Shown: positions 1,084-22,451 of the stretch, in pieces
Position numbering within the stretch: position 1 is the stretch's first letter
Layout of the letters: each line of letters starts with the position of its first letter
Program-made: the position numbers and the translations under genes
DNA from: Okeania sp.
Lineage (GTDB): Bacteria > Cyanobacteriota > Cyanobacteriia > Cyanobacteriales > Microcoleaceae
Assembly (NCBI RefSeq): GCF_035285525.1
Contig: NZ_JAYKGW010000171.1
Coordinates: 1 to 32,000, forward strand
Direction of reading: 5' to 3'
DNA: 32,000 bases
The notes under the pieces: generated by a model
Told to the model about the DNA's origin: nothing
The model's input: the letters and a program-made list of their open reading frames with translations, nothing else
Database searches by the model: none

Positions 1084-1170
1084 TTGAAAGTGAAAGTTAT
1101 TTTCTCGTTAAACTTTCCTTTTATTATATAGCAGTTCCTATACTTGTGAGGTACAAAATTTCTGATTTTA

Positions 1171-1236
1171 GGGAATAGGGAACAGGTAAAAGTTTCAGTT
1201 TTTTGATTTACTTTTTGACTGGTCGCAACCTATTTA
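1171..1236 (-). repeat. Dispersed repeat family C, copy 2 (inverted relative to copy 1)
   Basis: The reverse complement reads taaataggttgcgaccagtcaaaaagtaaatcaaaaaactgaaacttttacctgttccctattccc. Confidence 0.6.
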
Positions 1237-1469
1237 GAATTATTATAGAAGCAACTTAGTATCTTTGCCTAAGACTAAATTTTTGAGGTACAAAGTTTTC
1301 TTCTGTAGATACAAGAAATACACCGAAAAGATGAAAAAATATTCCCATAAACCTCATCTCTATTGCCCATTGCCAACCTCCATACTTCTTCTTTGAAGAT
1401 GTCTATTTTTAAATGGGTTAACTTATCCGCTAAGGGAGAAAAATACTCCCATTACCATGTTTATAAAAA

Positions 1470-1527
1470 ATATAATAGACATCTCCAAAAAGAAAAAACA
1501 GGAAATCAATTCTTATTCATAAATTAT
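1470..1527 (+). repeat. Dispersed repeat family D, copy 1 (atataatagacatctccaaaaagaaaaaacaggaaatcaattcttat..ataaattat)
   Basis: ~58 bp nearly identical to 7711-7768. In both places an STRR-like stretch and then a family A MITE follow. Confidence 0.6.
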
Positions 1528-1592
1528 GAATTACTTCTTCCTATTACCCATTCCCTCTTTTTGGGAGAAGTATAATGACAATGCACATAATA

Positions 1593-1721
1593 ATATCATG
1601 TCCGGTAGCATCGGAGCGTGTATAGTATTAAGGTAAAAATGGTAGAAAAGCTTCTGCCCTCAGCATAACTCCCTTCTGCCTTCCTTCCACCAAAGTTTAA
1701 TTATTCAACCGCACATGATAT
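1593..1721. mobile_element. MITE-like element, family A (termini atatcatgtccgg ... ccgcacatgatat), copy 1
   Basis: Inverted termini atatcatgtccgg (1593-) and caaccgcacatgatat (-1721). It shares the sub-terminal aaagtttaaYtattcaacc with copy 3 and tattcaacc with copy 2. It ends 18 bp from the stop codon of ORF 1739-4111. Confidence 0.6.
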
Positions 1722-1738
1722 AATACACCATCAACTTA

Positions 1739-4111
1739 TCATTTTCTAGCCACAATTTTCCACAATTCCACCTGAACTTTTGCAACTACTTCTTGCCAGT
1801 TTCTCAACTGAGATTGACGGAATAATTTCATAGTTGGATACCAGGGAGTTTTTTCTCCTTTTTGTAACCAACGCCAGTCAGGATTAAAACATAATAAAGT
1901 CCAGACATTTTTACCTAATGCTCCGGCTAAATGTGCCACAGAAGTATCAACAGTAATGACTAAATCTAGTTGATTTATTACTGCTGCTGTATCAGCATAA
2001 TTATTTAACTCAGAACCTAAATTTTCTATGTAAATGTTATTGGGAAGTTGACTTAATTCTTGGCTACGTTCTCCTTTTTGCAGACTATAAAATTTCACTT
2101 CTGGTGTTTTTAAAATCGGTAAAAAGTCTGTTAGTTTACAGGAACGATTATCATCGTTTTTATGAGTAGGATTACCTCCCCAAATAATCCCTACTTTATA
2201 TTCAGTATTGGCAAGATTTATATAATTATTATTTGTTAATTTTAGATAGGGAATGTTGTTAGGAATTGTTTCTAAAGTTGTGTCGAAAATATGAGGTAAA
2301 CTCATTAATGGTATATAGGTATCAAATTCTGATAAATTTAGTTCTCCTGGTGGCATTAATTTATCAATTTCTGGGATATTTTTAAATAGGGGAATTAATT
2401 CTGGCGGACATACTAATATAATACTTTGACAACGTTTTGCTACTAAAGGAATATAACGAATAAATTGAATAGCATCTCCTGCTCCTTGCTCAGTATGAAC
2501 TAATAAATTTTTCTGGCTAATATCTTCCCCTTGCCATCGAGGGTGAAGGCATTGAAAAGGAGTAAATTCTGATGTTTTCCAGCGCCATTCAGATTCTGCA
2601 AATCCCCTTTTTAAATCTCCATTTTTTAATAATGTCATGGCTAAATTAAAATGTGCTTTAGCAAAATTACCGTTGAGATAAATTGCTTTTTCATAATGTT
2701 TAATAGCTGCCTCTAAATCACCTTTTTGACTATAAGCATAAGCAAGACTATTGTGAGCATCAGCATTATCTGGCTCTGTATTAATTACCTGTTGTAAAAT
2801 ATCAATTGCTGATTCATATTCTTCATTGTCTCCTAAAGCTACACCCAAATTATATTTAGCTTTAATTAAATCTGGTTGTAACTTCAAACATTCTTGATAA
2901 GTAGCGATCGCTTCTGTTAACTTACCATTTTCATATAAATCATTTCCTTTAGTTAAATAAGTTTCCGCCATAGCTATTTCTGAAATTGGTTTAACAGTTT
3001 CTGCTAAAGCTTCATCGGGCAAAACATAAGAACTTGCTAATAAATTTTCATCCCATTCAATAATTTCTGGAAATCGAATATTTGGCAAAACTGCCACAGA
3101 AAATATTTCTTGAACTCCCTCTTCAAACCTTAAAAAAGCGATAGTTTCTCCAGTTAAAATATTCACCACCCAAACCCCACAAATTCTTTCTTGAAGTTCA
3201 GTAATAGGCATTCCCGTAAAAACAGCAGTTTCTCGAACTTGAGACAAACCAATAAATGCTAAATCTCCCCAAAAATCTATACCGCGAGTAAACCCTGGTA
3301 ACTTAGCAATAGTTTCTAATTTTCTTTCTTTTAAATCAACCTTTGCTAAACTACCATTGCCCGATTCTAATAACCATAATTCTTCCTGATACCATCTCGG
3401 AGAATGAGGCATAGATAAACCCCGCATTAAAATTTCATTTGTTTCTATATCTATTAAAATTCCCCCATTAGCCTTATTCTTTCTCCACCCTGCTGAAGTG
3501 TCAGTTTCTCCTAAAGCTGTCGCATATTTTGGCAGATCATTTTTCAAACAAAATCCATTCAAATGACAGCGGTCTGTTAAATCATATCCAGTAATAAAAG
3601 GAGGTCTCCATTTCGGAACAAAACTATTAGGATGACCGAGGTGACAAAGACAAGAAAAACGAGTATTAATAAACCATAATTCATCTTTTGCCCAAGCCAT
3701 TTCGTGAATATCAATATCTCCAGTTATATGAATATTTCTAGGTAAATAACAAGCATCATGTTTACCAATAGGTTCGATTTTTTCTGCCACTGCTGGAACA
3801 TTACGAAAATCCCAAATTTGATAAGCAGTTCCCATAGAAATTTTTTCCTTAGTTACTGCTAATCCCATCGGTTTATTAAAAGAGCGAAAATGAGTATTAA
3901 TTACCCCATTATCCGGACGCAATACGATTAATTTACCTGCTTGATAGGTAGAAACAACTAAAGATATACCTAACTGGTCTAAAATATGGGGGAAATTATT
4001 TGTATGTACACTTCTTAATAAATAATTGTCAGTATTCACAGGAGTATCAGCTTGACTATTCATGTTCATTTCAGTTATTATTTTGAAAATCGGCACAAAT
4101 CTATTAAACAA
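1739..4111 (-). CDS. Three-part fusion: TIGR03032-like N-domain, TPR repeats, glycosyltransferase family 9 (heptosyltransferase-like) C-domain
   Basis: 790-aa ORF; an alternative ATG at 4069 gives MNMNSQ... aa ~30-365 (nt ~4024-3017) carry LGISLVVSTYQAGKLIVLR and other motifs I associate with the uncharacterised TIGR03032 family. aa ~380-505 (nt ~2974-2597) hold about 4 TPR units (AKYNLGVALGD, AHNSLAYAYSQKGDLEAAIKHYEKAI, AHFNLAMTLLKNGDL). aa ~510-790 have GT9-like motifs (GIIWGGNPTHKNDDNRS, DLVITVDTSVAHLAGALGKNVWTLL). Confidence 0.75.
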   Translation of the reverse strand: MFNRFVPIFKIITEMNMNSQADTPVNTDNYLLRSVHTNNFPHILDQLGISLVVSTYQAGKLIVLRPDNGVINTHFRSFNKPMGLAVTKEKISMGTAYQIWDFRNVPAVAEKIEPIGKHDACYLPRNIHITGDIDIHEMAWAKDELWFINTRFSCLCHLGHPNSFVPKWRPPFITGYDLTDRCHLNGFCLKNDLPKYATALGETDTSAGWRKNKANGGILIDIETNEILMRGLSMPHSPRWYQEELWLLESGNGSLAKVDLKERKLETIAKLPGFTRGIDFWGDLAFIGLSQVRETAVFTGMPITELQERICGVWVVNILTGETIAFLRFEEGVQEIFSVAVLPNIRFPEIIEWDENLLASSYVLPDEALAETVKPISEIAMAETYLTKGNDLYENGKLTEAIATYQECLKLQPDLIKAKYNLGVALGDNEEYESAIDILQQVINTEPDNADAHNSLAYAYSQKGDLEAAIKHYEKAIYLNGNFAKAHFNLAMTLLKNGDLKRGFAESEWRWKTSEFTPFQCLHPRWQGEDISQKNLLVHTEQGAGDAIQFIRYIPLVAKRCQSIILVCPPELIPLFKNIPEIDKLMPPGELNLSEFDTYIPLMSLPHIFDTTLETIPNNIPYLKLTNNNYINLANTEYKVGIIWGGNPTHKNDDNRSCKLTDFLPILKTPEVKFYSLQKGERSQELSQLPNNIYIENLGSELNNYADTAAVINQLDLVITVDTSVAHLAGALGKNVWTLLCFNPDWRWLQKGEKTPWYPTMKLFRQSQLRNWQEVVAKVQVELWKIVARK

Positions 4112-4275
4112 GGAAAATAACTAATAATCCGGATTTAAAGTTGAAATTTAGAGATGATAATCATCAAGGAGACTTTTTATCTTCTAGTCTGATGAAGATT
4201 CAGATAAGAAGTAGATATTTATCCTTGATATTATCTGTAGTAAAGGCTATTTTATCGTCAAATAAGGACATTAAT

Positions 4276-5013
4276 ATGTTAAAAAAGCTGGTTAAAAATG
4301 TTCTGGAGTCTCAAGGATATTTTATTTACAATATAGAAAACTTACCATTTGGATGCGATCATAAAGAGGATATAGCTAGAGTATCGCCTAGATTAAATGT
4401 AAATACAATTTTTGATGTTGGTGCTAATGTTGGAGTTATGAGTCTTTCATATAGAAAGAGATTCCCAAATGCTAAAGTGTATTCTTTTGAGCCAGTCAAT
4501 AAAACTTTTTCTCAATTAAAGGAAGCAACTAAGAATGATTTAGATATTCATTGCTACAACATGGCATTAGCTGCAGAAAACGGCTCTGGAATTATAAATA
4601 TTGGGAGTAAGTCAGGCCAAAACTCTTTAGTGATTCGTCAACAAGGTGAGATAACCTCACAGGAAGTAAAGTTGATAACTATTGACGATTTTCTTAACCA
4701 AGAACAGAAAATAGAGCAGATTGACATCCTCAAAATAGACGTTGAAGGTTTTGAATCTGATGTATTAAAGGGTGCAGAAAAAACATTAGACTCTGGCCGG
4801 ATTTTATATATCTATATCGAAACAACATTCCGGGAAGAGGACACTCATCACACCCAATTCTCTCAAATCCAAGAATTTCTGAGAAAATATAAATTTAACC
4901 TGATGGGGTTTTATGATATCTTACCATACTGGGCCGGAGGTAATGCAATTCCTTTTTGTAATGCTTTGTTCAAGCGCTGGGAGAAGGACTCTATTGCTAT
5001 CAAGAAATCATAA
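4276..5013 (+). CDS. FkbM-family SAM-dependent methyltransferase
   Basis: Motifs FDVGANVGVMSLSY...VYSFEPV and IDILKIDVEGFESDVLKGAEKTL are typical of the FkbM family. The track ORF opens at TTG 4141. ATG 4276 (MLKKLV...) or ATG 4192 are more plausible starts. The stop at 5013 is firm. Confidence 0.8.
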   Translation: MLKKLVKNVLESQGYFIYNIENLPFGCDHKEDIARVSPRLNVNTIFDVGANVGVMSLSYRKRFPNAKVYSFEPVNKTFSQLKEATKNDLDIHCYNMALAAENGSGIINIGSKSGQNSLVIRQQGEITSQEVKLITIDDFLNQEQKIEQIDILKIDVEGFESDVLKGAEKTLDSGRILYIYIETTFREEDTHHTQFSQIQEFLRKYKFNLMGFYDILPYWAGGNAIPFCNALFKRWEKDSIAIKKS

Positions 5014-5202
5014 TCTTCATCAGTTTCTAAAATCTTGATTCAAATGGACCTGTTCTGACATCAACCACCTTATTGTAAATGTTTTTTAGAACTTTGAAAA
5101 GGTAGTTTAGGTTGCTAGTCCGATAGATTGGGTGCATCTCAATTAATTAAAAACCCTCTTTATTCCATGCTTACAAACCAATTTTTATACCATTTCACCG
5201 TA

Positions 5203-5290
5203 ACCCTGCGATGATAAAAGACCCAAGTGTTACGACCCCGCGATGATCAAAGACGTAAGCGATGGGACCCCACGATGACAAATTTAGAGG
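5203..5290 (+). repeat. Three imperfect 32-nt tandem repeats (acccYRcgatgaYMaa...)
   Basis: Units are at 5203-5234, 5235-5266 and 5267-5290 (partial). The first 20 nt of units 1 and 2 match at 18/20. Confidence 0.55.
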
Positions 5291-5301
5291 TTTTATTATA
5301 C

Positions 5302-5383
5302 TCAGGACTTACGCAAAAGATTAAATCATACACAATATGTAGGGGAACTCCTACTAGATATGCTGGCTTTGCGTAAGTCCTGA
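5302..5383. mobile_element. Inverted-repeat element, family B (tcaggacttacgcaaa ... tttgcgtaagtcctga)
   Basis: 17-bp near-perfect inverted termini at 5302-5319 and 5367-5383 enclose ~47 bp. Confidence 0.6.
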
Positions 5384-5438
5384 TACTATAACTTAGGATA
5401 TAATTTAAGTTCAGCACTTTAAGACTATTCTTAAAATT

Positions 5439-5672
5439 ATGCTAAGACGTGTTAGTAAGATGCAAAAACAGGTTTTCTCCGAGTTATCCCCAGAACAAGA
5501 AATATTGCTTTCAAAGTATGTATAAAAGTGGAAAGCAATAGCAAAACTGACCCAAGTTATCGATTGAGAAAAAGTTGAAACAGCAATTAGAACTACTTAC
5601 AAAGCGAGTGGTTTTCCTGAACCTGAAATTATTTTTTTTCCAACCCTTTTGCCGCAATTAAAGAAATTTTAG
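5439..5672 (+). pseudogene. Decayed N-terminal fragment of a conserved cyanobacterial hypothetical protein
   Basis: A single frame reads MLRRVSKMQKQVFSELSPEQEILLSKYV*KWKAIAKLTQVID*EKVETAIRTTYKASGFPEPEIIFFPTLLPQLKKF*. In-frame stops lie at 5523 (TAA) and 5565 (TGA), and the terminal TAG is at 5670. The pattern ..LSPEQE.L...Y..KW..IA.....ID.EK...A....Y...G..EPEIIF resembles N-termini of a hypothetical-protein family I recall from cyanobacteria. The remainder is missing, and a MITE-like element starts at 5739. Confidence 0.5.
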
Positions 5673-5738
5673 AGACTAAAAATTTTAATACTTAGCAAAG
5701 ATGCGGTTTTTTTGCACAGGAATCAGGATTTAGGAGTC

Positions 5739-5930
5739 ATATCATGTTCGGATAATCAGTTATAATAAAGTTTAAGGACTGACACCTGCCGACACCTGTC
5801 AAAGAAATACTGAAATTATTAATACTATTCCTTATTTACTTCCCCTCCTGGGAGGGGTTAGGGGTGGGTTAACTCCTGACTCCTGACTCCTCACAACAGT
5901 TATTGATAAGTATTCAACCGAACATGATAT
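5739..5930. mobile_element. MITE-like element, family A, copy 2 (longer, variable core)
   Basis: atatcatgttcggataatcagt (5739-) ... tattcaaccgaacatgatat (-5930). The core contains the hairpin cccctcctgggagggg (5842-5857) and ctcctga heptamers. Confidence 0.6.
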
Positions 5931-5989
5931 CAGAAGTCAGGAATTAAGAAATAAAATAGGGAAAAAAAGTAGAAAAATGCCTTCATCTT

Positions 5990-6025
5990 CCCACAGTTCC
6001 CACACTCCCCACACTCCCCACACTC
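5990..6025 (+). repeat. STRR-like 9-nt tandem array (cccacactc x ~4)
   Basis: cccacagttcccacactccccacactccccacactc, just downstream of the M16 gene stop. Confidence 0.7.
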
Positions 6026-6043
6026 TGCTTTTTTCAGCAAACC

Positions 6044-7642
6044 CTACTTGGGAAGTAATCTCCCAATAGTCCGGTTTTCTGCCACGAAAGTTTCTTGAGC
6101 AACACGCTGAATATCTTCTCTAGTGACAGCATTAATGTTATCCAACTCTTTAAATAAATTTTGCCACGAACCTGTTTTCACTTCGTAGTCCACCAGAGCT
6201 GATGCCATACCCATGTTAGAATCAAGAGACTGTAATAAACCTGCCCGCGCTTGAGCTTTTACCCGCTCTAACTCTGACTCAGAAACTAACTCCGTTTTCA
6301 ATTTTTCTATTTCTGTTCGCAAAGCTGCTCCTACTTCATCAACATCATTATTAGGAGCAGTTATAGCATAGAATAACATTAGGTGTGGGTATTTATCTCC
6401 CGGATAACCACTAAACCCCCTCGCGGAAAGAGCGATTTGTTGTTCCTCAACCAGCGACTGATATAGGCGAGAAGTTCTACCATTACTCAGAATACTCACA
6501 ATCATATCATAAACCACATTGTCGGGATGATTTATTCCTGGTCGATGATAACCTTCTAAATACCAAGGTTGAGATGGTAACTTCATCGTTATTTCCCTGG
6601 TTTCAGTTTGGGTGGGTTCCACAATATTGACTTCTGGTGGTGTTGCTTTGGTTGCATAGCGACCGAAATATATTTTCGCTAATTTCTTGACTTCTTTGGG
6701 ATTAACATCTCCAACTATCCCTACAGTTAAGTTATTAGGAACATAGTAAGTATCAAAAAAATCCTGAACATTTTCTCTAGTTAAATTTTGTAGATCCTCT
6801 GTGTAACCAATGACTGGGCGACCATAAGGATGTACTTGGAAACCTTGAGCGAGTAATTTTTCCAATATTTGAGCAACAGGTGAATTTTCGGTGCGCGATC
6901 GCTTCTCCTCCAAAATTACTTGTTTTTCTTTATAAAATTCTCTAAATACTGGTTCCAAAAATCTTTCTGACTCCAAAGACATCCATAACTCTAATTTGTT
7001 GGCAGGTAAACTGTAAAAGTATTGGGTGTAGTCAGCGGAGGTGGCAGCATTCAATCCTACTCCTCCTGCTTGTTTGACAATTTTTGAGAAATCATTTTGA
7101 GCGACATATTCAGATGCTAGCTTTTGAGTTTGTTCAAAGTCTGCTTTCAGTTGAGCAACTTGTTGGGTGTCACCATCCTTGCTTGCTTCCTGAATCTGTG
7201 CGAATATTTGATCTAATTTATCTAAAACTGGTTTTTCTGCCTCATAGTCTTTGGTACCAATTTTTCTTGTGCCTTTAAAAGCTAAATGTTCTAGGTAGTG
7301 AGCTACACCTGTCTGTCCGTCTGGTTCATCTACTCCACCCACATTAGCATAAATGAGAAAGGAGATTACCGGAGCATTGTGTCGTTCGAGAACGATGAAT
7401 TTCATGCCATTTTCGAGGCGAAATTCTGTTACTTCTTTAATTACTCGGTCTAAATAGGGTTTGATAGAGATTTTTTGGTCAGGAATAGATTCCTTAGCTA
7501 AGACTGTATGACCAGGAAATCCAAGCCAAAATAAACTTATAGCAATTAAACAAAAGCATAATAAAAGTGATCGCTTTTGGAGTTTGGCCTTGTCTAAATT
7601 AGTAGTAATTATTTTTTGACACCAAATTGGAAATTTCAGCAT
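6044..7642 (-). CDS. M16 (pitrilysin/insulinase) family zinc peptidase with N-terminal signal/anchor
   Basis: 532-aa ORF with the inverted zinc motif HxxEH in GVAHYLEHLAFKGT. The length fits the two-domain M16 architecture. A hydrophobic N-terminus (LLLCFCLIAISLFWLGF) is present. Confidence 0.85.
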   Translation of the reverse strand: MLKFPIWCQKIITTNLDKAKLQKRSLLLCFCLIAISLFWLGFPGHTVLAKESIPDQKISIKPYLDRVIKEVTEFRLENGMKFIVLERHNAPVISFLIYANVGGVDEPDGQTGVAHYLEHLAFKGTRKIGTKDYEAEKPVLDKLDQIFAQIQEASKDGDTQQVAQLKADFEQTQKLASEYVAQNDFSKIVKQAGGVGLNAATSADYTQYFYSLPANKLELWMSLESERFLEPVFREFYKEKQVILEEKRSRTENSPVAQILEKLLAQGFQVHPYGRPVIGYTEDLQNLTRENVQDFFDTYYVPNNLTVGIVGDVNPKEVKKLAKIYFGRYATKATPPEVNIVEPTQTETREITMKLPSQPWYLEGYHRPGINHPDNVVYDMIVSILSNGRTSRLYQSLVEEQQIALSARGFSGYPGDKYPHLMLFYAITAPNNDVDEVGAALRTEIEKLKTELVSESELERVKAQARAGLLQSLDSNMGMASALVDYEVKTGSWQNLFKELDNINAVTREDIQRVAQETFVAENRTIGRLLPK

Positions 7643-7710
7643 AATAAATGGTAAAATTTAGTCAATTAATAACTTAAGATTATATTATATTTCCTGTAAT
7701 TTGGCTAATA

Positions 7711-7768
7711 ATATAATAGACATCTGCAAAAAGAAAAAACAGGGAATCAATTCTTATCTATAAATTAT
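7711..7768 (+). repeat. Dispersed repeat family D, copy 2
   Basis: atataatagacatctgcaaaaagaaaaaacagggaatcaattcttatctataaattat. Confidence 0.6.
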
Positions 7769-7784
7769 CATTTACTTTCCTCTA

Positions 7785-7822
7785 TTCCCTCCATACCTGT
7801 TCCCTCCATACCTGTTCCCTAC
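7785..7822 (+). repeat. 15-nt tandem array (ccctccatacctgtt x ~2.5)
   Basis: ttccctccatacctgttccctccatacctgttccctac. The same motif recurs at 12781-12800 and 12911-12925. Confidence 0.7.
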
Positions 7823-7881
7823 TTCCTATATAAATTTTTTTTTATTAATTAATACTTAAATTTTTCCATAATCAAGTTATT

Positions 7882-7994
7882 ATATCATGTCCGGATAATC
7901 AGTCATAAAAAACTTTTTTCCCTTTACCCTTTCTTTCCCTTCTGGGTTCTACCTTTCTTTCTCCAAAGTTTAACTATTCAACCAGACATGATAT
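7882..7994. mobile_element. MITE-like element, family A, copy 3
   Basis: atatcatgtccggataatcagt (7882-) ... aaagtttaactattcaaccagacatgatat (-7994). It lies in the divergent M16/TetR promoter region. Confidence 0.6.
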
Positions 7995-13420: not shown

Positions 13421-14107
13421 TTAATTTAAGTTCTTTTTTCGGCCAGAAACTGAATTATTTTGCTGGTAAGCGATCGCTGAATCTACTTGCTTCAATAAAA
13501 TATCTAAGGTAGAGGAGTTATCCACAACTATATCCGCTTTTTCGCATTTTTCTGCCAAGGACATCTGATTATTAATTCGGGTATAAGCTTGTTTTTCTGT
13601 TAAGCGGTCACGTTTTATTAATCTTTCTATTTGTTGTTGGAGTGTAGAGTATATCACCCAAGTTTCTGTTACTAAATCAGTCATTTTAGCTTCAAACAGT
13701 AGTGGTATTACTAATACTACTGTAGAATTTTGAGAAGTAGTTTGATAGGAAGTAATTTGTTGAAAGGTTTTATCGTTAAATTCACTATTTTTAATGATAA
13801 AATACTTAATATTCTCTTCAAAGCGATGACGAACATAAGGATGAATCTGTTGTTCTAACCAATGTAATTCTTTTTGATTGTTAAATACAATTTCTCCTAA
13901 TTGTTGCCTATCCAAGTTACCATTAGGTAAAATAATATTTTGACCATAGTGTTCTACTATATCCCCCAAAATTGGTGAACCAGGTTGTACAGCTTCCCGC
14001 CCATAAATATCTGCATCCCAAACGGGAAACTGGTAACTTTGATGCAAATAATTAGAGACAGTAGTTTTTCCTGTACCAATACCACCAGTTAAACCAATAA
14101 AACGCAT
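13421..14107 (-). CDS. coaE: Dephospho-CoA kinase
   Basis: MRFIGLTGGIGTGKTTVSNYL P-loop at the extreme N-terminus. Length and overall pattern are typical of CoaE. Confidence 0.9.
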   Translation of the reverse strand: MRFIGLTGGIGTGKTTVSNYLHQSYQFPVWDADIYGREAVQPGSPILGDIVEHYGQNIILPNGNLDRQQLGEIVFNNQKELHWLEQQIHPYVRHRFEENIKYFIIKNSEFNDKTFQQITSYQTTSQNSTVVLVIPLLFEAKMTDLVTETWVIYSTLQQQIERLIKRDRLTEKQAYTRINNQMSLAEKCEKADIVVDNSSTLDILLKQVDSAIAYQQNNSVSGRKKNLN

Positions 14108-14183
14108 AATTTTTAAGTTAAAAATCTGAATAATAAATAGGATTTGTTGAAAAAAGTTTTTTAGTAAGAGGACGGAGTCAGAA

Positions 14184-14214
14184 GTCAGGAGATATGGGAA
14201 TTATAGAATAAGTA
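14184..14214 (-). promoter_or_regulatory. 31-bp conserved motif containing TATAAT (read on - strand), upstream of coaE
   Basis: gtcaggagatatgggaattatagaataagta matches 29601-29631 at 26/31. On the - strand it reads tacttattcTATAATtcccatatctcctgac, with the hexamer at 14200-14205. It lies 77 bp upstream of the coaE start. Confidence 0.35.
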
Positions 14215-14364
14215 GTCAGTAGCTGTGTCGTTATGGTAGTAGGCAGGTTCTTAATATTATGCGTTATTCGTAGGAATAAAACTTTAGTAATTGATTTAAT
14301 AATACAATTATGGACATTAAATTTATCGCTATACTTTCAGTAGATTGGACTTCTTTTTTCCTGG

Positions 14365-14412
14365 CTACTCCCCTACTCCCCCATCCCCCTACTCCCTACT
14401 CCCCTACTCCCT
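14365..14412 (+). repeat. STRR-like heptamer array (ctactcc/tactccc)
   Basis: ctactcccctactcccccatccccctactccctactcccctactccct, upstream of the TpsA-CHAT gene. Confidence 0.75.
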
Positions 14413-14527
14413 AAAAATGATAGAATTATTATACTGCGAGCATCTTGCTCGTGCGTGCTTTATTATTAATTATTTTTCTATGGACTACTGATAACTGATA
14501 CTAAAAAAGCTCCCTATATTAAAAACC

Positions 14528-17500
14528 ATGAAGTATGTACTTGTTAATAAAATTTACCATATTCTCATAACTGTCCCCTTAACTGGACTTTGGATATTGG
14601 ACACTGCTACACTCTTCTTAAGCCCCCCTTTGAAATGGGGGTTGGGGGGATATCCAACTGCATTAGCTCAATCATCACCCGGACCCATAGTTCCTGAACC
14701 AAACTCAACTAACACGGTAGTAACTCCGGTAAAACCATCAAACAATTCTGACCCAACCCGCTTTGATATTACAGGTGGAAAGCGCTCTAGAGATAATACT
14801 AATATTTTCCACAGTTTCAGTGAATTTAGTTTGACAGAAAGCCAAATTGTTAACTTTATATCTAACCCCAATATAGAAAATATTTTAACTCGTGTTACAG
14901 GTGGAGATGCTTCTGTAATTAATGGTTTAATTCAGGTAACTGGAGGAAATTCTAACTTATTTATTATGAATCCTGCTGGGATTATTTTTGGTGCAAATGC
15001 TAGATTAGATGTACCTGGTTCTTTTGTTGTAACTACTGGTTCAAGTATTGATTTTAATTCTGGTTCATTTAATTCTACAGGTAAAAATAACTATAATATT
15101 TTAACAGGAAATCCGGCTGCTTTTTCCTTTCCTATAAATAATTTGGGGGTAATAATAAATGAAGGTGAATTAACTGTTGAACCAGGAAAAAGTGTAGTTT
15201 TATTAGGTGGCACAATTATTAATACAGGAAAAATATCTGCACCAGGGGGTGAAATTACAATCTCTACAATTTTAGGAGAAGATTTAGTCCGCATTAGTCA
15301 AGAAGGGCGTTTGTTAAATTTAGAAATAAAAAGGGAAGATGGAGAAAGTTCAAGTACAAATTTAAGTGAAGAATTAGAGACATTACATCCTTTATCTATA
15401 CCTCAATTGTTAACTGGTAATAATGAGGCGATGGAAACTGCTACTGGAGTAACGGTTAATGGTGATAATCAAGTAGTTTTGACTGGTTCAAATCAGGTAA
15501 TTCCTACAGATTCAGGTACAACTATTATTTCTGGTTATCTGGATGTTTCTGGAACAGAAGATTCAGAATTATCAAATACAAGTGGAATTAATATTTTTGG
15601 AGAAAAAGTAGGATTATTTGATGCTAATTTGGATGCTTCTAGTATTAATGGCAGTGGAAATATTAGAATTGGTGGAGATTTTTCTGATTTAAGAAATGTT
15701 CCTAATGCTACTCGTATTTATGTTGATGAAGGAACAGAAATATCTGCAAAGTCTTCTTTTAGTGACGGAGGTAATATCGTTATTTCTAGTGCTGAAGAAA
15801 CTACATTTTTCGGGAAGATAGAAGCTACTGGTTATATTGAAAAACCTTCTAATTCAGTAGAATTAAACTCTACAAAAAATAGAGTAGAAATTTCTAGTCA
15901 AGGAATTTTAATTTTTGATGGCACTGTTAATTTAGGTTCTGCAAATACTTTGGGAGATTTATCTTTTAAAGCTGAAAACATTAAGATTGTACACAGCAAT
16001 ATTCAACTAGAAGATAATTCTTTAACTGAACAAAAAGCAACAGAATCTCAAATTTCTCAGTCATCAATAGAAACTATATCAAATGCAAATATTAAAATTG
16101 AAGCAGCAGATAATATAACTATTAATGATTTATCTGAAGCTGAATTAAATTTAATAAATACAATAGGTGAAATTTCATTTATCGCAGATAGCGACCAAAA
16201 TGGTTCCGGCTATTTTATTATAGATTCAAAAAATACTATTAATACTCAAGGAGCAGAAATTAATATTTCGGGAACCACAATTAATACAGGTAATATTAAT
16301 ACTAATGGCGGAGAACTAAATTTGACCAGTAGTCAAGGTTTTATTATGACTAATAATTTATCTACTGCTAACTTAAATATAAAATTAGAAAGGAATGGTG
16401 GAGATATAAATATTGACGCTCAGAGAAATATTACTACAGGAGAAATTGATTCTAGTGGAAAATCTAGGGGTGGAAATATTACCATAAATTCTGCTGCTAG
16501 TATTAATACACAAAACATTATTTCTGAAGGTCAACAAAGTGGTGGAAATATTGAGATCGCATCTGAAAATACTCTTAATCTTCAAGGAATATCAACATCT
16601 AGTGACAGTACAACAACTGGCAATATTTTCGTCTCTGCAAGGGAAGTTAACTTTTTAGGTGGGGAAAATAGTATTAGTAGTAACGGGAAACTTACCATAC
16701 AGTCAACATCAGAAAATAACAATATTACTTTGGGGGGGTTTGAAAATACACAAGCACTTAATCTGACAACATTAGAATTAACAGCTTTAGCAAATGGTTT
16801 TAGTTCCATTAACATCGGGAAATCAGAAAATTCTGGTACTATTACTATCTATTCTCCAGAAAACGGTGACAGAAATGGAGTGATATTTGACGATCCGGTA
16901 ACTATACAAGCAGAAAGAATTACAGGTAAAGGTACAATAAGTGGAAGAGATAATGCTAACATTACTCTAAATGCTAAAGGTGACATCTCCACTGGTGATA
17001 TTTCTGCATCTGGAGATATAAATATTAGAAGCAATGAAGGAAATATTGAAATAGGAAATGTGAATGCTAATACATCAAATAAAATTATTGGTAATATTGA
17101 TATTTTTAGTGATGATGGTTCTATAAAAACAGGAAAATTAACTACTACAAGAACAACAACTACAAGTGAAATAAGCGGAAGAGATGATGCCAACATTACT
17201 TTAAACGCTAACCGTGATATCTCCACTGATGATATTTCAGTGTCTGGAGATATAAATATTAGAAGTAATGAAGGTTCCATAGAAACAGGAAAATTAACTA
17301 CTACAAGAATAACAAGAGGAGGAAATATTGATATAGAAGCAGGCGATCGCTTGACCACAAAAGAAATAAATTCTAGCGCTAAATCAGGAAAGGGTGGAGA
17401 TGTTACATTGAGTGCAGAAAATGATATTGAAATTTTTTCAATCAAAGCAGAAGGTGGAAATTTTGGAGGTGATGTTGAAATTAGTACCGACGATACTCTG

Positions 17501-19450
17501 AGGATAACAGGTGCTTTCTCCAATCAAAATCAGAATCTTGCTAGCATTTCTACCGCAGGAGAGTCAGCAGGAGGAAATATTGTGATCAGCACAGAAAAAG
17601 AATTTACCGTAGGAAATGCAGCAACTAACGGTTCTGTACAAACAATTACAAATGGAGAATTTACAATTTCCCCCAAGCACTCTCTATCTAGAAACTTTGA
17701 TCTACTCGATCTAAAAGAAATAGAAAACTCTCAATCAGAATTACAGGAAACATCCACCAAGAATAGAGAAAATGAATCATCTGTAAACACAAATGAAGAA
17801 GTACAAAAAGAACAAATAGTACCCCCAGAAACCAACAGAAACTCTCCAGTTTTAGGCAGTTCTGAAATGACTACCTCAGCGAGAGAAAATGTAGATAACC
17901 TCCAAGTATCTGAAGAAGAAGTTCCTGCATTAATGGTAGAAGAGCAAACTACAGAAGAATTAGAACCAACTAATCCCTCTCGACTTCTTTGGAAAAACCC
18001 AGAAGAAACTATTCTTGTACAAGATACAAACTCTGAAGGAACTATTATTTTAGAAGATACAAATTCTAATATAAACTCGTCAGTTTTTGAAGTTTCTGAG
18101 CCAACTATTGCTACAGAAAATTTTGCTGAAGGTAAGTTTTCAGAGGAACCAACCTCAAATATTGTGATAGAAGAAAATATGACTATTACTGCTTCAGAAA
18201 TTTCTGCTAAGGATAATTTCCCAATTAGATTAACAGATACAATATCTCAGATAGAGCTAACTAGAGGCAAAGAATTTGCTAGTTATTTAGGAGAAAATAT
18301 CTCTAGGAGAACTGCCACACCAGCAAACATTCGTGATACTCTCAGTAGTGTTGCTAAAATAGGCATCAAACCTGCAATTATATATGTTTCTGCACGATCT
18401 AATTATTTAGAATTACAATTATTTTTGCCCAATGGTAAACCAGTTGTTAAAAGTCTTAGAAAAAGCAGAGAAGAAGTAATTGAGGTTGCTAAAAAATTCA
18501 CGAATCAAATTAGAAATCCTAGTCAATTAGATTCTCGCAATTATTTAGAAAATTCTCAAATATTATATCAATGGTTAATTGAACCAATATATGGAGAACT
18601 GAGAAATAATCATATAAACATGATAATTTTTTCAATGGATAGTGGTTTAAGAACTCTTCCCATAGCCGCTCTATATGATAATGAGCGTAAACAATACCTA
18701 GTAGAAAAATATAGTTTAGCGTTAATTCCTAGTTTTAGTTTAACAGATACCAGATATACGGGATTAAAAGGCTCTCAAATTTTGGCAATGGGAGCATCTG
18801 AATTTCCTACTGATGCTAATCAAACTCCTCTACCCGCAGTACCTATAGAACTTAATGCTATTGTGAATAAATATTGGTCTGGTAAATCTTTTTTAAATCA
18901 ACAATTTACATTAAAAAATTTGCTGCAGCAACGCAGCAAAGAAAAATTCAAAATTATTCATTTAGCGACTCATGGAGAATTTCATCCAGGGGGTGCTGAT
19001 AATTCTTATATTCAATTTTGGGATACTAAGTTACGCTTGAATGAGTTCCGTCAGTTACGTTTGTATAGTCCCCAGGTAGAGTTATTGGTGTTGAGTGCTT
19101 GCACAACTGCGGTGGGGGATGAAGATGCTGAGTTAGGTTTTGCGGGGTTAGCAGTGCAAGCAGGAGTCAAGTCTGCTTTGGCAAGTCTTTGGTATGTTAG
19201 TGATACTGGTACATTAGCTTTAATGACTGAGTTTTATGAAAATTTGTCAAAAAGACCTATTAAAGCAGAAGCATTACGAGAAGCTCAGTTAGCAATGTTA
19301 AGGGGGGAAGTTCAGTTAGAAGATGGTCTGATACTCCGAAATGGTAATCCACTTTTGTCTTTACCACGGCAGTTAGTTGGAGGTGATCAGAAAGATTTAT
19401 CTCATCCCTATTATTGGGCAGGGTTTACGATGATCGGTTCGCCGTGGTGA
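14528..19450 (+). CDS. TpsA-like exoprotein: filamentous-haemagglutinin N-terminal (TPS) domain, beta-helix-like repeats, acidic linker, C-terminal CHAT protease domain
   Basis: 1640 aa. A leader ends ..PTALA-QS. The TPS domain spans aa ~54-175 (nt ~14687-15052) with NIFHSFSEF, ILTRVTGGDASVINGLIQ, NLFIMNPAGIIFG, DVPGSFVVTT. About 900 aa of G/N/S/T/I-rich repeats follow, then an E/S/N/T-rich linker (nt ~17690-18240). The CHAT domain occupies nt ~18245-19447 with IIHLATHGEF (His codon 18971) and LLVLSACTTAVG (Cys codon 19100), ending HPYYWAGFTMIGSPW. Confidence 0.85.
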   Translation: MKYVLVNKIYHILITVPLTGLWILDTATLFLSPPLKWGLGGYPTALAQSSPGPIVPEPNSTNTVVTPVKPSNNSDPTRFDITGGKRSRDNTNIFHSFSEFSLTESQIVNFISNPNIENILTRVTGGDASVINGLIQVTGGNSNLFIMNPAGIIFGANARLDVPGSFVVTTGSSIDFNSGSFNSTGKNNYNILTGNPAAFSFPINNLGVIINEGELTVEPGKSVVLLGGTIINTGKISAPGGEITISTILGEDLVRISQEGRLLNLEIKREDGESSSTNLSEELETLHPLSIPQLLTGNNEAMETATGVTVNGDNQVVLTGSNQVIPTDSGTTIISGYLDVSGTEDSELSNTSGINIFGEKVGLFDANLDASSINGSGNIRIGGDFSDLRNVPNATRIYVDEGTEISAKSSFSDGGNIVISSAEETTFFGKIEATGYIEKPSNSVELNSTKNRVEISSQGILIFDGTVNLGSANTLGDLSFKAENIKIVHSNIQLEDNSLTEQKATESQISQSSIETISNANIKIEAADNITINDLSEAELNLINTIGEISFIADSDQNGSGYFIIDSKNTINTQGAEINISGTTINTGNINTNGGELNLTSSQGFIMTNNLSTANLNIKLERNGGDINIDAQRNITTGEIDSSGKSRGGNITINSAASINTQNIISEGQQSGGNIEIASENTLNLQGISTSSDSTTTGNIFVSAREVNFLGGENSISSNGKLTIQSTSENNNITLGGFENTQALNLTTLELTALANGFSSINIGKSENSGTITIYSPENGDRNGVIFDDPVTIQAERITGKGTISGRDNANITLNAKGDISTGDISASGDINIRSNEGNIEIGNVNANTSNKIIGNIDIFSDDGSIKTGKLTTTRTTTTSEISGRDDANITLNANRDISTDDISVSGDINIRSNEGSIETGKLTTTRITRGGNIDIEAGDRLTTKEINSSAKSGKGGDVTLSAENDIEIFSIKAEGGNFGGDVEISTDDTLRITGAFSNQNQNLASISTAGESAGGNIVISTEKEFTVGNAATNGSVQTITNGEFTISPKHSLSRNFDLLDLKEIENSQSELQETSTKNRENESSVNTNEEVQKEQIVPPETNRNSPVLGSSEMTTSARENVDNLQVSEEEVPALMVEEQTTEELEPTNPSRLLWKNPEETILVQDTNSEGTIILEDTNSNINSSVFEVSEPTIATENFAEGKFSEEPTSNIVIEENMTITASEISAKDNFPIRLTDTISQIELTRGKEFASYLGENISRRTATPANIRDTLSSVAKIGIKPAIIYVSARSNYLELQLFLPNGKPVVKSLRKSREEVIEVAKKFTNQIRNPSQLDSRNYLENSQILYQWLIEPIYGELRNNHINMIIFSMDSGLRTLPIAALYDNERKQYLVEKYSLALIPSFSLTDTRYTGLKGSQILAMGASEFPTDANQTPLPAVPIELNAIVNKYWSGKSFLNQQFTLKNLLQQRSKEKFKIIHLATHGEFHPGGADNSYIQFWDTKLRLNEFRQLRLYSPQVELLVLSACTTAVGDEDAELGFAGLAVQAGVKSALASLWYVSDTGTLALMTEFYENLSKRPIKAEALREAQLAMLRGEVQLEDGLILRNGNPLLSLPRQLVGGDQKDLSHPYYWAGFTMIGSPW

Positions 19451-19472
19451 TATCAGTTTTTTCAGTTATTAG

Positions 19473-19500
19473 GAAGTAGGGAGTAGGGAGTAGGGAGTAG
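19473..19500 (-). repeat. STRR-like heptamer array, inverted relative to 14365-14412
   Basis: gaagtagggagtagggagtagggagtag is the reverse complement of the ctactccc-type array. It starts 23 bp after the TpsA-CHAT stop codon. Confidence 0.75.
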
Positions 19501-19521
19501 TTGAAGACTGAAGATATATAG

Positions 19522-19867
19522 GCGCGAGCTTTCCGGCTCGCACTGAAAATTGGCAGTTGTTAAGTTAGGGAAAACGCCAAAGGTGAAAAGCTAAAGTCTC
19601 CTTGGGGGAATCAGAAGGCGATCGCTTTCTGGGAGGGGGCGGGTCTAGTTAGTTGGTCGTTGTTAAGTTAGCTTACTGATGAGACCCGCCCCTACGGAGA
19701 TGGGGAAAACCGCCGTTTTTCAGTTCTGGGAGGGGGCGGGTCTAGTCAGCTTGTCGTTGAGAGCGTTAGCTTACTGATGAGACCCGCCCCTACGGAGATG
19801 GGGAAATCAGTTGTTAGTTGGAAGTAAACCCGCTAAATATACACACGCGCGAGCTTTTTGGCTCGCA
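19522..19867. repeat. Composite repeat: two gcgcgagcttt..ggctcgca hairpins bracketing two ~96-bp tandem units with GC hairpins
   Basis: Hairpins lie at 19522-19543 and 19847-19867. Tandem units lie at 19627-19708 and 19723-19806, each reading ttctgggagggggcgggtctag...ttagcttactgatgagacccgcccctacggagatggggaaa. The stem ggggcgggtc/gacccgcccc is related to the 8678-9009 family. Confidence 0.75.
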
Positions 19868-19895
19868 TTGGAAATGTTTTCAATTCTTGTTTAGC

Positions 19896-20852
19896 CTAAA
19901 TTAAATACCCCAAACCAGCTAGAGTATCTCCTGCTAACTCTTTCCAAAGAGCAATGTCTTCTGGTAAAAGTCCAGTTTGCCATTCTCCAATAGAACCTTG
20001 ACGAATATGTTTACCTTCTCCTTTGTTTTTTACTTTACTAATATCTGTTGCATCAATAATTTCATCAATTAGAGTTTCATCATAGTCTAAACCAATAAAA
20101 TCAAATATTTTGCTTATTTCTTTCTGTGGATAAGTACGGAGGTTTTCATAACGGACTGAATAAAGGCGATCGCTAATTTCTGAGTTTGCTTTAGCTATTT
20201 TTCCTCTCTCAATAGCTTTTTTCCATATTTGAATCACACTTTTTGTGCTTTGTTTTGCCCAACGAGCATTTTTTGATCTGGCTTGATAGGAAACACAAAT
20301 ATCGCGCCCATCTCGAATAATTTCTATACCTTTTGATTCAGGAAACTGATTTAAAATTACATCAATATAACGCAAATGTTGTGGTGTTTTTTCAAGAAGA
20401 ATATCCTTTTGAGTTCCTCCATTTTTTTCAAAAAAGCGATCAAACATTAACTTGTTTAATTTTTTGACTTTTGTTAAGTCATCTTCTGAACCAGAACTAG
20501 CTTTTGCTATTAATTCTTGTAGCTCTGTATAATTTACTAAATTATGAAGTCCAACTTTATCTTTGCCCTTTTGGTATGCCTCATAATGCTTGAAAATACC
20601 TTGCCAAATATCTTCTGATTTAAAACCTAATAACAATGGTTTTAAACCATAAAATTTTAATATCCATTTTGCTGACTTGAATCTTTTTTTTAGTTTCTGC
20701 TGTTTCAAATAGGTAAAGTAGTGGTAAGTTAGAGAATAAGCATGACTTTCTGATGGAACTTTTAGAATATTAGGATGAAGGCTAATTATTTTCGTCAACC
20801 AACTTGTACCAGAGCGGGGACAACCAACTACAAATAATTTACGGTACTTCAT
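19896..20852 (-). CDS. PAPS-dependent sulfotransferase family protein
   Basis: 318 aa. A 5'-PSB-like loop FVVGCPRSGTSWLTKII lies at the N-terminus, and a 3'-PB-like IIRDGRDICVSY lies mid-protein. Confidence 0.8.
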   Translation of the reverse strand: MKYRKLFVVGCPRSGTSWLTKIISLHPNILKVPSESHAYSLTYHYFTYLKQQKLKKRFKSAKWILKFYGLKPLLLGFKSEDIWQGIFKHYEAYQKGKDKVGLHNLVNYTELQELIAKASSGSEDDLTKVKKLNKLMFDRFFEKNGGTQKDILLEKTPQHLRYIDVILNQFPESKGIEIIRDGRDICVSYQARSKNARWAKQSTKSVIQIWKKAIERGKIAKANSEISDRLYSVRYENLRTYPQKEISKIFDFIGLDYDETLIDEIIDATDISKVKNKGEGKHIRQGSIGEWQTGLLPEDIALWKELAGDTLAGLGYLI

Positions 20853-21226: not shown

Positions 21227-21509
21227 CATTCCGCAGGAAAGTTCTGACCCAGGAGGCTAACTGATAACTGAAATTACCCCACTTCAAGAGGTAAACTTTT
21301 ATTAAGCAGAAGTTCAATATTACTACAAAAGTAGAGTATTATTACTAATAGCTGAATCCTTATATTAAAAGAGCGTAGATATCACAATAATTCAGTATCG
21401 ACTTTGACAGACATTGCTCAAACTTTATACTAGGTCTAACAAGATTAATTCTGAAAAATTTAATATCCTCAAAAGTAATCAATCATTAAACTCTAATTAT
21501 GTAATAACC

Positions 21510-22451
21510 ATGCACAAATTTTTATTAACCACAATTATTACTGGTTTGATATATACTTTACATATCCACTTTCAGCCAGTTTTTGCTAATCGAATCACTG
21601 AAGCTAACTATGACAATTTAAAAATTGGTATGACTTATCAGGAAGTCAAACAAATATTAGGTAAAGAAGGTCAAATTTATCCTGAATATAATAGTCCGGG
21701 TTTGGAAAATTTTTGGGTTGCTTATCGGTGGGTAAATAATGATGGTACAGGAATAACTGCTATCTTTAATTCTGAAAATAAGTTAATTAAATTAACTGCT
21801 CAAAATTTGAATACTACTAGCTTGGGAGCTAACAGAAAACTTACTGTAGTTACAAATAGAAATGTTGAAGAGATAAAAGTTGGCATGAGTTATGATGAAG
21901 TGACAAAAATTATTGGCAATAGAGGAACCAAACAGTCTAGTAGCAATAACTCTTTAACTAATCCTAATACTACTGAATATATTTGGCTTAATTCTGATGG
22001 TACAAGTCTGAGTATAGTTTTTAATTCTAATCAGAAAGCAGTAGCTATTAGAACCCAAAATATGAATACTTATAATTTTGGTAATCCTTTCTGGAATCAA
22101 CCTAAACCAGTTTATGCAATTACTAGAGAAAAGTATGAAAAATTGCAGTTAGGAATGACATACCAAGAAGTTAGAAATATCCTGAAAAAAGAAGGAGAAT
22201 TAGATACAGAATTTGATCCGGGAGCTTTTCAAAAATCAAGAGAGGCAAAGGAAATGCAACTTAATGGTACTGCTGATCACGAGGGTTTAGTTAATAGAGA
22301 ACAAGTAGTGCCAAATGAGGTGGAAGAAGGGGAGAAAATTAAGAATGCTTATCAATGGATGAATCCCGATCAAACAGGAATTAAAGTGGTTTTTAATATG
22401 CAAGATAGAGCAGTTGCTATATATACTTTTGGTTTGGGCGTTGGACTGTGA
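21510..22451 (+). CDS. Secreted protein with three BLIP-like / DUF3862-type (SmpA/OmlA-like) repeats
   Basis: The preferred start is ATG 21510 (MHKFLLTTIITGLIYTLHIHFQPVFA signal-like peptide); the track ORF opens at 21414. Three modules begin ITEANYDNLKIGMTYQEVKQILGKEG, VTNRNVEEIKVGMSYDEVTKIIGNRG and ITREKYEKLQLGMTYQEVRNILKKEG. Each ends in a W.N.DGT.I..VFN....... motif. Confidence 0.7.
   Translation: MHKFLLTTIITGLIYTLHIHFQPVFANRITEANYDNLKIGMTYQEVKQILGKEGQIYPEYNSPGLENFWVAYRWVNNDGTGITAIFNSENKLIKLTAQNLNTTSLGANRKLTVVTNRNVEEIKVGMSYDEVTKIIGNRGTKQSSSNNSLTNPNTTEYIWLNSDGTSLSIVFNSNQKAVAIRTQNMNTYNFGNPFWNQPKPVYAITREKYEKLQLGMTYQEVRNILKKEGELDTEFDPGAFQKSREAKEMQLNGTADHEGLVNREQVVPNEVEEGEKIKNAYQWMNPDQTGIKVVFNMQDRAVAIYTFGLGVGL

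Follow-up and report, generated by a model that had tools for sequence, protein, structure and literature searches.

A TpsA-type protein with a C-terminal CHAT protease module, encoded beside coaE in Okeania sp. and other filamentous cyanobacteria

Gene and protein

A stretch of 32,000 nucleotides from Okeania sp. (contig NZ_JAYKGW010000171.1, positions 1 to 32,000; hereafter the window) carries, on the + strand at 14528..19450, a complete gene whose product joins a two-partner-secretion (TPS) domain, through a beta-helix and a linker, to a C-terminal CHAT module (the TPS-CHAT gene). The first-pass annotation, made from the letters of the window alone, had placed one uninterrupted open reading frame (ORF) here, and this was confirmed; 1640 amino acids (aa) and a stop codon are encoded, and the product is 100% identical to RefSeq WP_324237692.1 (Okeania sp., 1640 aa). 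In the GenBank record of the metagenome-assembled genome (MEB3342261.1, 1602 aa) the start was set 38 codons downstream, whereby the conserved leader (window 14528-14641) was removed. The gene and its upstream neighbour, coaE, were both recovered in an independent read-level assembly of the same sample; the gene is therefore no assembly artefact.

The protein consists of four parts, viz. a conserved extended leader, a TPS domain with ~1000 aa of beta-helix of the EtpA/HMW1 type, a variable acidic linker and a 400-aa C-terminal CHAT module. It is a genuine member of a large uncharacterised family and represents a TpsA passenger with a CHAT protease, not a categorically new system. The fusion of TPS and CHAT domains is unsurprising to anyone browsing domain architectures; in public annotation, proteins of this architecture are named 'CHAT domain-containing protein' or 'filamentous hemagglutinin family outer membrane protein'.

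The extended leader (aa 1-48; 14528..14671, + strand) is composed of a hydrophobic block, ILITVPLTGLWILD, a variable spacer and the residues A-L-A-Q, the latter being the likely signal-peptidase site at which cleavage would occur. The same layout (a ...PLxGxWxLD hydrophobic block, a variable spacer, and A-x-A-Q immediately ahead of a conserved 'PIVPEPNST') is common to nearly all of 120 homologues, and the ATG at 14528 was for this reason preferred over the later GenBank start. The leader argues for an extended, type-V-like signal peptide; no Pfam match to ESPR was obtained in the protein. The TPS domain (aa 62-268; 14711..15331, + strand) contains the motifs NIFHSF and NPAGIIFG, and its earlier assignment to the TPS/haemagglutination type was borne out by hidden Markov model (HMM) search, with two models above their curated cut-offs: Pfam PF05860 (TPS), aa 62-268, E = 2.3e-42, 146 bits (cut-off 33.5 bits); TIGR01901 (adhes_NPXG, NCBIfam), aa 94-172, 79.9 bits (cut-off 29.1 bits).

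The following segment (15332..17701, + strand; to ~aa 1058) encodes a beta-helix stalk with internal near-duplicated units, as judged from an AlphaFold2 model, Foldseek and a profile. In the model of aa 45-1100 (predicted local distance difference test, pLDDT, 83; predicted template modelling score, pTM, 0.75) short beta-strands were observed up to ~aa 1058. The best PDB matches of this model in Foldseek were all TpsA beta-helices: full-length EtpA (E = 2.7e-17), HxuA, HMW1, HpmA and FHA. The family profile, when run against the PDB, reached EtpA (E = 3e-49 over ~670 positions) and the HMW1 secretion domain (E = 1e-19); from the fold and profile matches taken together, the stalk is specifically EtpA/HMW1-like. 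The beta-helix-like repeats proposed in the first-pass annotation are thus supported by an all-beta model with TpsA matches. N-x-S/T sequons were not enriched (28 observed, ~31 expected).

Between stalk and CHAT module lies an acidic, S/T-rich low-complexity linker (aa 1061-1240; 17708..18247, + strand), recognised by its composition and by low model confidence. Its content of D+E is 22%, and the pLDDT of the stalk model is below 50 from ~aa 1064 onward (fragment residues 1020-1056), in agreement with the acidic disordered segment proposed earlier. In homologues the linker is 45-272 aa long and of similarly low complexity, the sequence itself not being conserved. A 33-bp tandem repeat (2.2 copies, 17995-18067) was found within the linker-coding DNA; together with the variable length it suggests a tether that evolves by expansion and contraction of repeats.

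CHAT module

The C-terminal CHAT module (aa 1235-1640; 18230..19447, + strand), which ends with the conserved FTMIGSPW, was delimited by Pfam, AlphaFold2 and Foldseek. Its Pfam core (PF12770, aa 1343-1638; 18554-19441, + strand) was matched with E = 1.2e-68 and 232 bits (cut-off 24 bits), and the AlphaFold2 model of aa 1235-1640 had pLDDT 90.7 and pTM 0.92. Foldseek of this model placed Csx29/TPR-CHAT first (E = 4.6e-15, template modelling score 0.60, ~380 columns), followed by the periplasmic CHAT of DdvA, separases, SAVED-CHAT, gingipain and caspases; in a sequence search of the PDB no CHAT structure was reached, either by the single sequence or by a 32-sequence CHAT-only profile.

The catalytic residues are His1482 (codon CAT, 18971..18973, + strand; in IHLATHGE, with H-G at the end of a beta-strand) and Cys1525 (codon TGC, 19100..19102, + strand; in VLSACTTA, with A-C at the end of a beta-strand), separated by 43 residues. 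In the model, IIHLAT-H1482-G and LLVLS-A-C1525 are inside predicted strands (fragment residues 240-251 and 285-293); with His-Gly and Ala-Cys so placed, the dyad fits the clan-CD signature. For the dyad count 260 members were aligned to the profile, and two that have no CHAT module, and were gapped, were left out; His was present in 258 of 258 and Cys in 257 of 258. The CHAT assignment and the intact His/Cys dyad of the first-pass annotation are accordingly retained on the Pfam match, the two codons and a near-invariant alignment. Cys1525 is the sole cysteine in the 1640 aa (homologue median, 3 cysteines); a single catalytic cysteine would fit an exported protein that transits the periplasm unfolded. 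As judged from sequence and model, the module is apparently an active protease.

Family and conservation

Of the candidates scored in a search with the full-length protein, 1,848 were relatives, and almost every one of the 120 listed combines a TPS with a CHAT domain. All named members among these 120 are cyanobacterial and belong mostly to filamentous genera (Okeania, Trichodesmium, Dapis, Microcoleus, Planktothrix, Limnospira, Phormidium, Kamptonema, Tychonema, Lyngbya). Species-representative genomes were also scanned; they contain at least 572 loci of the family, in some cases with several paralogues per genome. The family is common in filamentous cyanobacteria, in which similar annotated proteins had been noted; the remark that it is functionally uncharacterised was likewise supported, a functional study being absent from the searchable literature.

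With the 406-aa CHAT module as query, 4,680 matches at E <= 1e-30 were obtained from 1.84 billion representative proteins. The module is at the extreme C-terminus in each of the 150 best matches (150/150; protein length 443-3,469 aa), and 103 of these 150 possess an N-terminal TPS domain. Most of the matches without TPS domain start within beta-helix repeats and resemble truncated fragments; short CHAT-only proteins are a minority of the 150, and the N-termini of several of them, as judged by eye, look like Sec signal peptides. In view of these N-termini and of the solved periplasmic CHAT of DdvA, the description of CHAT proteases as intracellular in the first-pass annotation was too strong. 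No recurring informative partner was found in the gene contexts of the short CHAT-only paralogues. At one such locus (L080, 11241-14300) the CHAT-only paralogue, whose N-terminus is signal-peptide-like, precedes a Trypsin_2-TPR gene and, after it, a Peptidase_C14 (caspase)-GUN4 gene; together they form a small cluster of protease genes.

Within the orthologue group defined below, identity to the window protein was 52-82% for CHAT, 48-80% for TPS, 29-64% for the repeats and 1-49% for the linker. The CHAT module, as the best-conserved part, is therefore probably the functional business end of the protein.

Genomic position

The upstream gene, coaE (dephospho-CoA kinase; 13421..14107, - strand; Pfam CoaE, E = 3.5e-57), is divergent from the TPS-CHAT gene and separated from it by an intergenic region of 420 bp (14108..14527) that contains a heptamer array and a hairpin. 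On the other side a convergent sulfotransferase gene follows after a repeat field of 446 bp; the neighbours are those named in the first-pass annotation. For the analysis of context the flanking ORFs of 79 related loci and of the window were clustered. In the window and in 23 of the related loci coaE directly precedes the TPS-CHAT gene and is read from the other strand; these coaE-linked loci are from Okeania, Dapis, Microcoleus, Planktothrix, Limnospira, Phormidium and further Oscillatoriales, and none of the distant paralogues (1,000-3,700 aa) adjoins coaE. The fixed position marks one orthologue group with vertical inheritance across a family-level clade, and the synteny, which is stable over at least seven genera, agrees with a core gene transmitted vertically rather than with a cassette for a polymorphic toxin.

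Other neighbours in the window (ComF-like, LamG, sulfotransferase, BamE-like, CoaX and DUF4912 genes) do not recur in the related loci, not even in those of other Okeania and Dapis. The BamE-like ORF (21414-22451, 345 aa) has a hydrophobic stretch in the N-terminal region and weak repeated BamE/SmpA_OmlA-like matches; it is not syntenic with TPS-CHAT in relatives, and its proximity is therefore probably coincidental. In several Microcoleus loci a Trypsin_2-TPR homologue recurs downstream of the coaE-linked gene.

Transporter and DUF928 loci

The 32-kb window holds no TpsB gene, and the term orphan, used in the first-pass annotation, is correct for the locus. A bona fide TpsB (POTRA_2 + ShlB) adjoins one distant paralogue (L070). 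This TpsB was used as a tblastn probe, followed by a 120-sequence HMM, against the six-frame translations of 1.63 Mb of loci and of the window. TpsB was adjacent in 1 of the 79 related loci and absent beside the other 78; the unlinked state is thus the rule for the family and not a peculiarity of the window. Unlinked arrangements of tpsA and tpsB and promiscuous TpsBs are on record (TPS review).

TpsB homologues are plentiful in filamentous cyanobacteria (2,407 hits in the homologue search), and the HMW1B subgroup of TpsBs is rich in cyanobacterial sequences (Heinz and Lithgow). The TpsB gene and the coaE-linked TPS-CHAT gene of Microcoleus sp. POL10_C6 lie on separate contigs. In two Microcoleus genomes, in Kamptonema formosum and in Oxynema, the neighbours of TpsB are a transglutaminase-like gene and one or two copies of DUF928, and no TpsA is encoded in the vicinity. 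The first-pass suggestion that the partner genes are remote is hence plausible, since TpsB occupies a separate DUF928-TpsB locus in related genera; for Okeania itself the same would have to be assumed from these relatives. Transglutaminase-core (cysteine-protease-like) and Peptidase_S13 genes were seen to recur at the DUF928-TpsB loci L084, L085, L089 and L090 (Microcoleus, Kamptonema, Oxynema), and the Oxynema locus has two DUF928 copies. At L090 (Oxynema, 702-7928) a 2,408-aa TPR protein, whose C-terminus is glycosyltransferase-like by eye, is encoded directly upstream of TpsB; it carries neither a TPS nor a CHAT domain and was set aside.

DUF928 was also found in the 10 kb flanking three TPS-CHAT paralogues (L043, L067, L072); at L043 it adjoins the paralogue on the upstream side, and the two genes overlap at the paralogue's start codon. 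At the other two loci, which belong to unrelated genomes, a CHASE2 sensor gene separates the paralogue from DUF928 (L067, 12687-15311; L072, 17779-19482). The pairwise links DUF928-TpsB, DUF928-TPS-CHAT and TpsB-TPS-CHAT suggest that these genes work as one system and as a rule lie scattered, in a split, multi-locus type Vb arrangement. One of the two CHASE2 genes is fused to GGDEF-EAL domains, which hints at a signalling link. The sole mention of DUF928 in the searchable full-text literature is in a WD40 survey.

Repeats and other genes of the window

An array of CTACTCC(C) heptamers (14365-14411) is situated in the upstream intergenic region, and its reverse complement, TAGGGAG x4.4 (19470-19500), soon after the stop codon; the two arrays, which bracket the TPS-CHAT gene, resemble cyanobacterial STRR-type repeats. 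A hairpin, GCGAGC-N5-6-GCTCG(C), occurs in three copies on both sides of the gene (14435-14458, 19524-19545, 19848-19871) and looks like a dispersed repetitive extragenic palindrome (REP) of this genome. The downstream repeat field (19451..19895) comprises the heptamer array, two of the GCGAGC hairpins and a 98-bp unit (x1.8, 19627-19806), in each copy of which GGGGGCGGGTCT...AGACCCGCCCC forms an inverted repeat and the string 'CTGATGAG' occurs. A hammerhead core, of which this string is reminiscent, was rejected, no Rfam match being obtained at the gathering threshold or at E <= 1; the 98-bp repeat is probably an element similar to a miniature inverted-repeat transposable element or to a REP. 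Promoter and terminator scans of 14000-20000 gave counts equal to the shuffled expectation.

The window is ordinary cyanobacterial chromosome (~34% G+C) in which neither tRNA genes nor Rfam matches were found. Its other genes include those of cyanophycin synthetase, cyanophycinase, TrmD, CoaX, an M16 peptidase and a TetR regulator; an FkbM methyltransferase gene is present in addition to the sulfotransferase gene, and a DUF4915-TPR ORF with a weak GT9 match (1739-4111) lies ~10 kb from the TPS-CHAT gene.

Proposed export and function

On balance we lean to the view that an exported EtpA-like stalk (Sec, then TpsB) tethers an active clan-CD protease outside the cytoplasm and that the protease has a conserved housekeeping function there, on the envelope or the surface of the filament. 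The TPS-CHAT gene probably encodes a type Vb passenger and belongs to the conserved gene set of Microcoleaceae-type filamentous cyanobacteria. The extended leader, conserved and ending with AxAQ, would direct the protein by Sec into the periplasm, where the TPS domain would dock on a TpsB of the HMW1B/ShlB type encoded elsewhere, in Okeania presumably paired with DUF928 as it is in relatives. About 1000 aa would then be threaded out and would fold into the EtpA/HMW1-like stalk seen in the model, and the flexible acidic linker would tether the 400-aa clan-CD protease, for which the fold, the dyad and the conservation were observed and activity is to be expected. The protease probably acts at the cell surface or in the periplasm, on envelope or surface proteins of its own cell or on its own linker.

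Several points weigh against this view. No ShlB/POTRA protein was found among the window ORFs of at least 100 aa or by the six-frame TpsB-HMM search of the window; the ORF domain scan and this search bear out the first-pass statement that the window has no tpsB gene. Among the named hits of the best 120 in two TpsB searches, about a quarter of the hits being named, none is from Okeania, Trichodesmium or Limnospira, and the retrievable flanks of five other Okeania contigs contain no TpsB; the TpsB partner in Okeania is presumed from relatives. The DUF928 and CHASE2 links rest on a handful of loci. In full-text searches of the searchable literature no paper was found that links CHAT to two-partner secretion, TpsA or haemagglutinin domains. 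Finally, a globular domain of 400 aa must stay unfolded through the TpsB barrel, and CHAT may remain periplasmic.

A periplasmic CHAT could be compared with the FhaB prodomain or the C-terminal half of CdiA and might cut its own linker, in cis or, from one molecule to the next, in trans, whereby the beta-helix adhesin would be released or matured; the exported functional product would then be the stalk and not the protease. CHAT is the last part in the N-to-C order of export, behind a disordered linker, and DdvA, the closest extracytoplasmic CHAT, has been proposed to cut the flexible linker of its own dimer partner; some TpsAs are matured by unlinked proteases (TPS review), and the signal-peptide-like N-termini of CHAT-only paralogues, recognised by eye, suggest periplasmic action. 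For self-processing, however, the stalk would be expected to be conserved at least as well as the protease, whereas the identity is only 29-64% in the repeats vs 52-82% in CHAT. The linker sequence, and hence any cleavage site in it, is not conserved, and the CHAT-only paralogues have no stalk to release. We consider self-processing as the main role rather unlikely.

In the first-pass annotation the CHAT module was likened to a toxin of contact-dependent inhibition (CDI), from which kin discrimination was derived; CHAT would be delivered into or onto neighbours for competition, kin discrimination or induced death. The C-terminal domain of the present family is the most conserved and not the most variable part, although an enzymatic domain does occupy the TpsA C-terminus, as in CdiA. 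CHAT effectors are found in conflict systems (Craspase, SAVED-CHAT), and several genomes have multiple TPS-CHAT paralogues of widely varying length; the position beside coaE, however, is stable across genera. None of the pre-toxin motifs VENN, VDNN, LYVN, NEALV, DAENN and ELYN is present in the protein, an adjacent cdiB is absent, and downstream of the stop only ORFs of 27-32 aa, inside the repeats, were found and none of immunity type, in accord with the first-pass annotation; translocation or receptor-binding modules were not detected by Pfam. The CDI analogy and the kin-discrimination reading were abandoned in view of the conserved C-terminus, the missing VENN-type motif and immunity ORF and the stable synteny, and an antagonistic effector appears very unlikely. 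It is hardly probable, too, that in this lineage the protein is no TPS substrate, keeps its TPS domain as a relic and resides in the periplasm, is held by an outer-membrane anchor or is exported by another route, or that CHAT is a non-catalytic binding module. Such a state would accord with the lack of Okeania, Trichodesmium and Limnospira among the named best hits of the TpsB searches and with the lack of TpsB near the gene in 78 of the 79 loci; but the TPS domain is the second most conserved part (48-80%) with an intact NPxG motif, the dyad is essentially invariant, and TpsB is present in other genera that have the same orthologue.

Significance

The exported, stalk-tethered protease that we favour may be extended to a wider proposal, which as a whole we regard as quite unlikely. 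An unrecognised extracytoplasmic proteolytic system, spread across cyanobacteria, would be made up of TPS-CHAT proteins, of DUF928 and TpsB with the transglutaminase-like gene conserved beside them and, in certain lineages, of CHASE2 sensors. A caspase-like protease, presented on a beta-helix stalk at the surface of the filament, would there process proteins of the envelope or of neighbouring cells, and filament integrity, adhesion and gliding, or else sacrificial cell death, would be under its control; DUF928 would act as its substrate, its inhibitor or a cofactor of export.

The position of the orthologue is kept in bloom-forming, crust-forming and commercially grown cyanobacteria (Trichodesmium/Okeania, Microcoleus, Planktothrix, Limnospira). 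A protease active at the surface would offer a handle on envelope remodelling or cell-cell communication in filamentous cyanobacteria, and the split arrangement, with the passenger at coaE and the transporter with DUF928, would be a natural case for studying how TpsB recognises unlinked or multiple passengers. What makes the family testable is that the gene keeps its position, the protein has a single cysteine, its conservation pattern is inverted, and the partner locus with DUF928 and TpsB is dispersed. Experimental access is given by the single cysteine, the invariant dyad and the paralogues in Nostoc and Anabaena genomes; both genera include genetically tractable strains.

Comparison with known systems

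EtpA of enterotoxigenic Escherichia coli and HMW1 of H. influenzae share with the window protein an N-terminal TPS domain followed by a long right-handed beta-helix, and their transporters are of the HMW1B type reported to be common in cyanobacteria; they differ in having no C-terminal protease. They are encoded in an operon with TpsB and a glycosyltransferase as third partner, whereas TpsB is unlinked from the window gene and sequons are not enriched in its product.

LepA of Pseudomonas aeruginosa is a precedent for a protease secreted via the TPS pathway (TPS review). It differs in being encoded together with its transporter and in its host-directed virulence role. LepA is not known to be a CHAT or clan-CD enzyme.

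CdiA and BcpA have in common with the TPS-CHAT protein the TpsA scaffold and an enzymatic domain at the extreme C-terminus. CDI toxins, however, are hypervariable, demarcated by a VENN-type motif, followed by an immunity gene and adjacent to cdiB; all four features were tested, and TPS-CHAT shows none of them.

Csx29 (TPR-CHAT; Craspase of type III-E CRISPR) has the closest solved fold and is likewise a His-Cys clan-CD protease, although at ~14% identity the relation is undetectable by sequence. It is a cytoplasmic enzyme with an N-terminal TPR, bound to Cas7-11 and activated by target RNA, unlike the window protein and its locus; no TPR domain was found by Pfam in the TPS-CHAT protein, and no cas-like ORF among the genes of the window. 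DdvA has an extracytoplasmic CHAT with a canonical dyad (H862/C907, 45 residues apart vs 43 here) and a proposed cleavage of a flexible linker. It is anchored by a transmembrane helix and not exported by TPS, contains TPR and anti-sigma domains, has no three-helix motif and regulates a defence island.

HetF of Nostoc/Anabaena, the founding cyanobacterial CHAT protease, is a CHAT-family cysteine protease of filamentous cyanobacteria, as the TPS-CHAT protein apparently is. HetF acts in heterocyst differentiation and has neither a TPS domain nor a beta-helix. It is chiefly as switches in the cytoplasm that caspase-like CHAT proteases are known (separase, Craspase, SAVED-CHAT, HetF); the TPS-CHAT family would put one on an exported stalk of the adhesin type.

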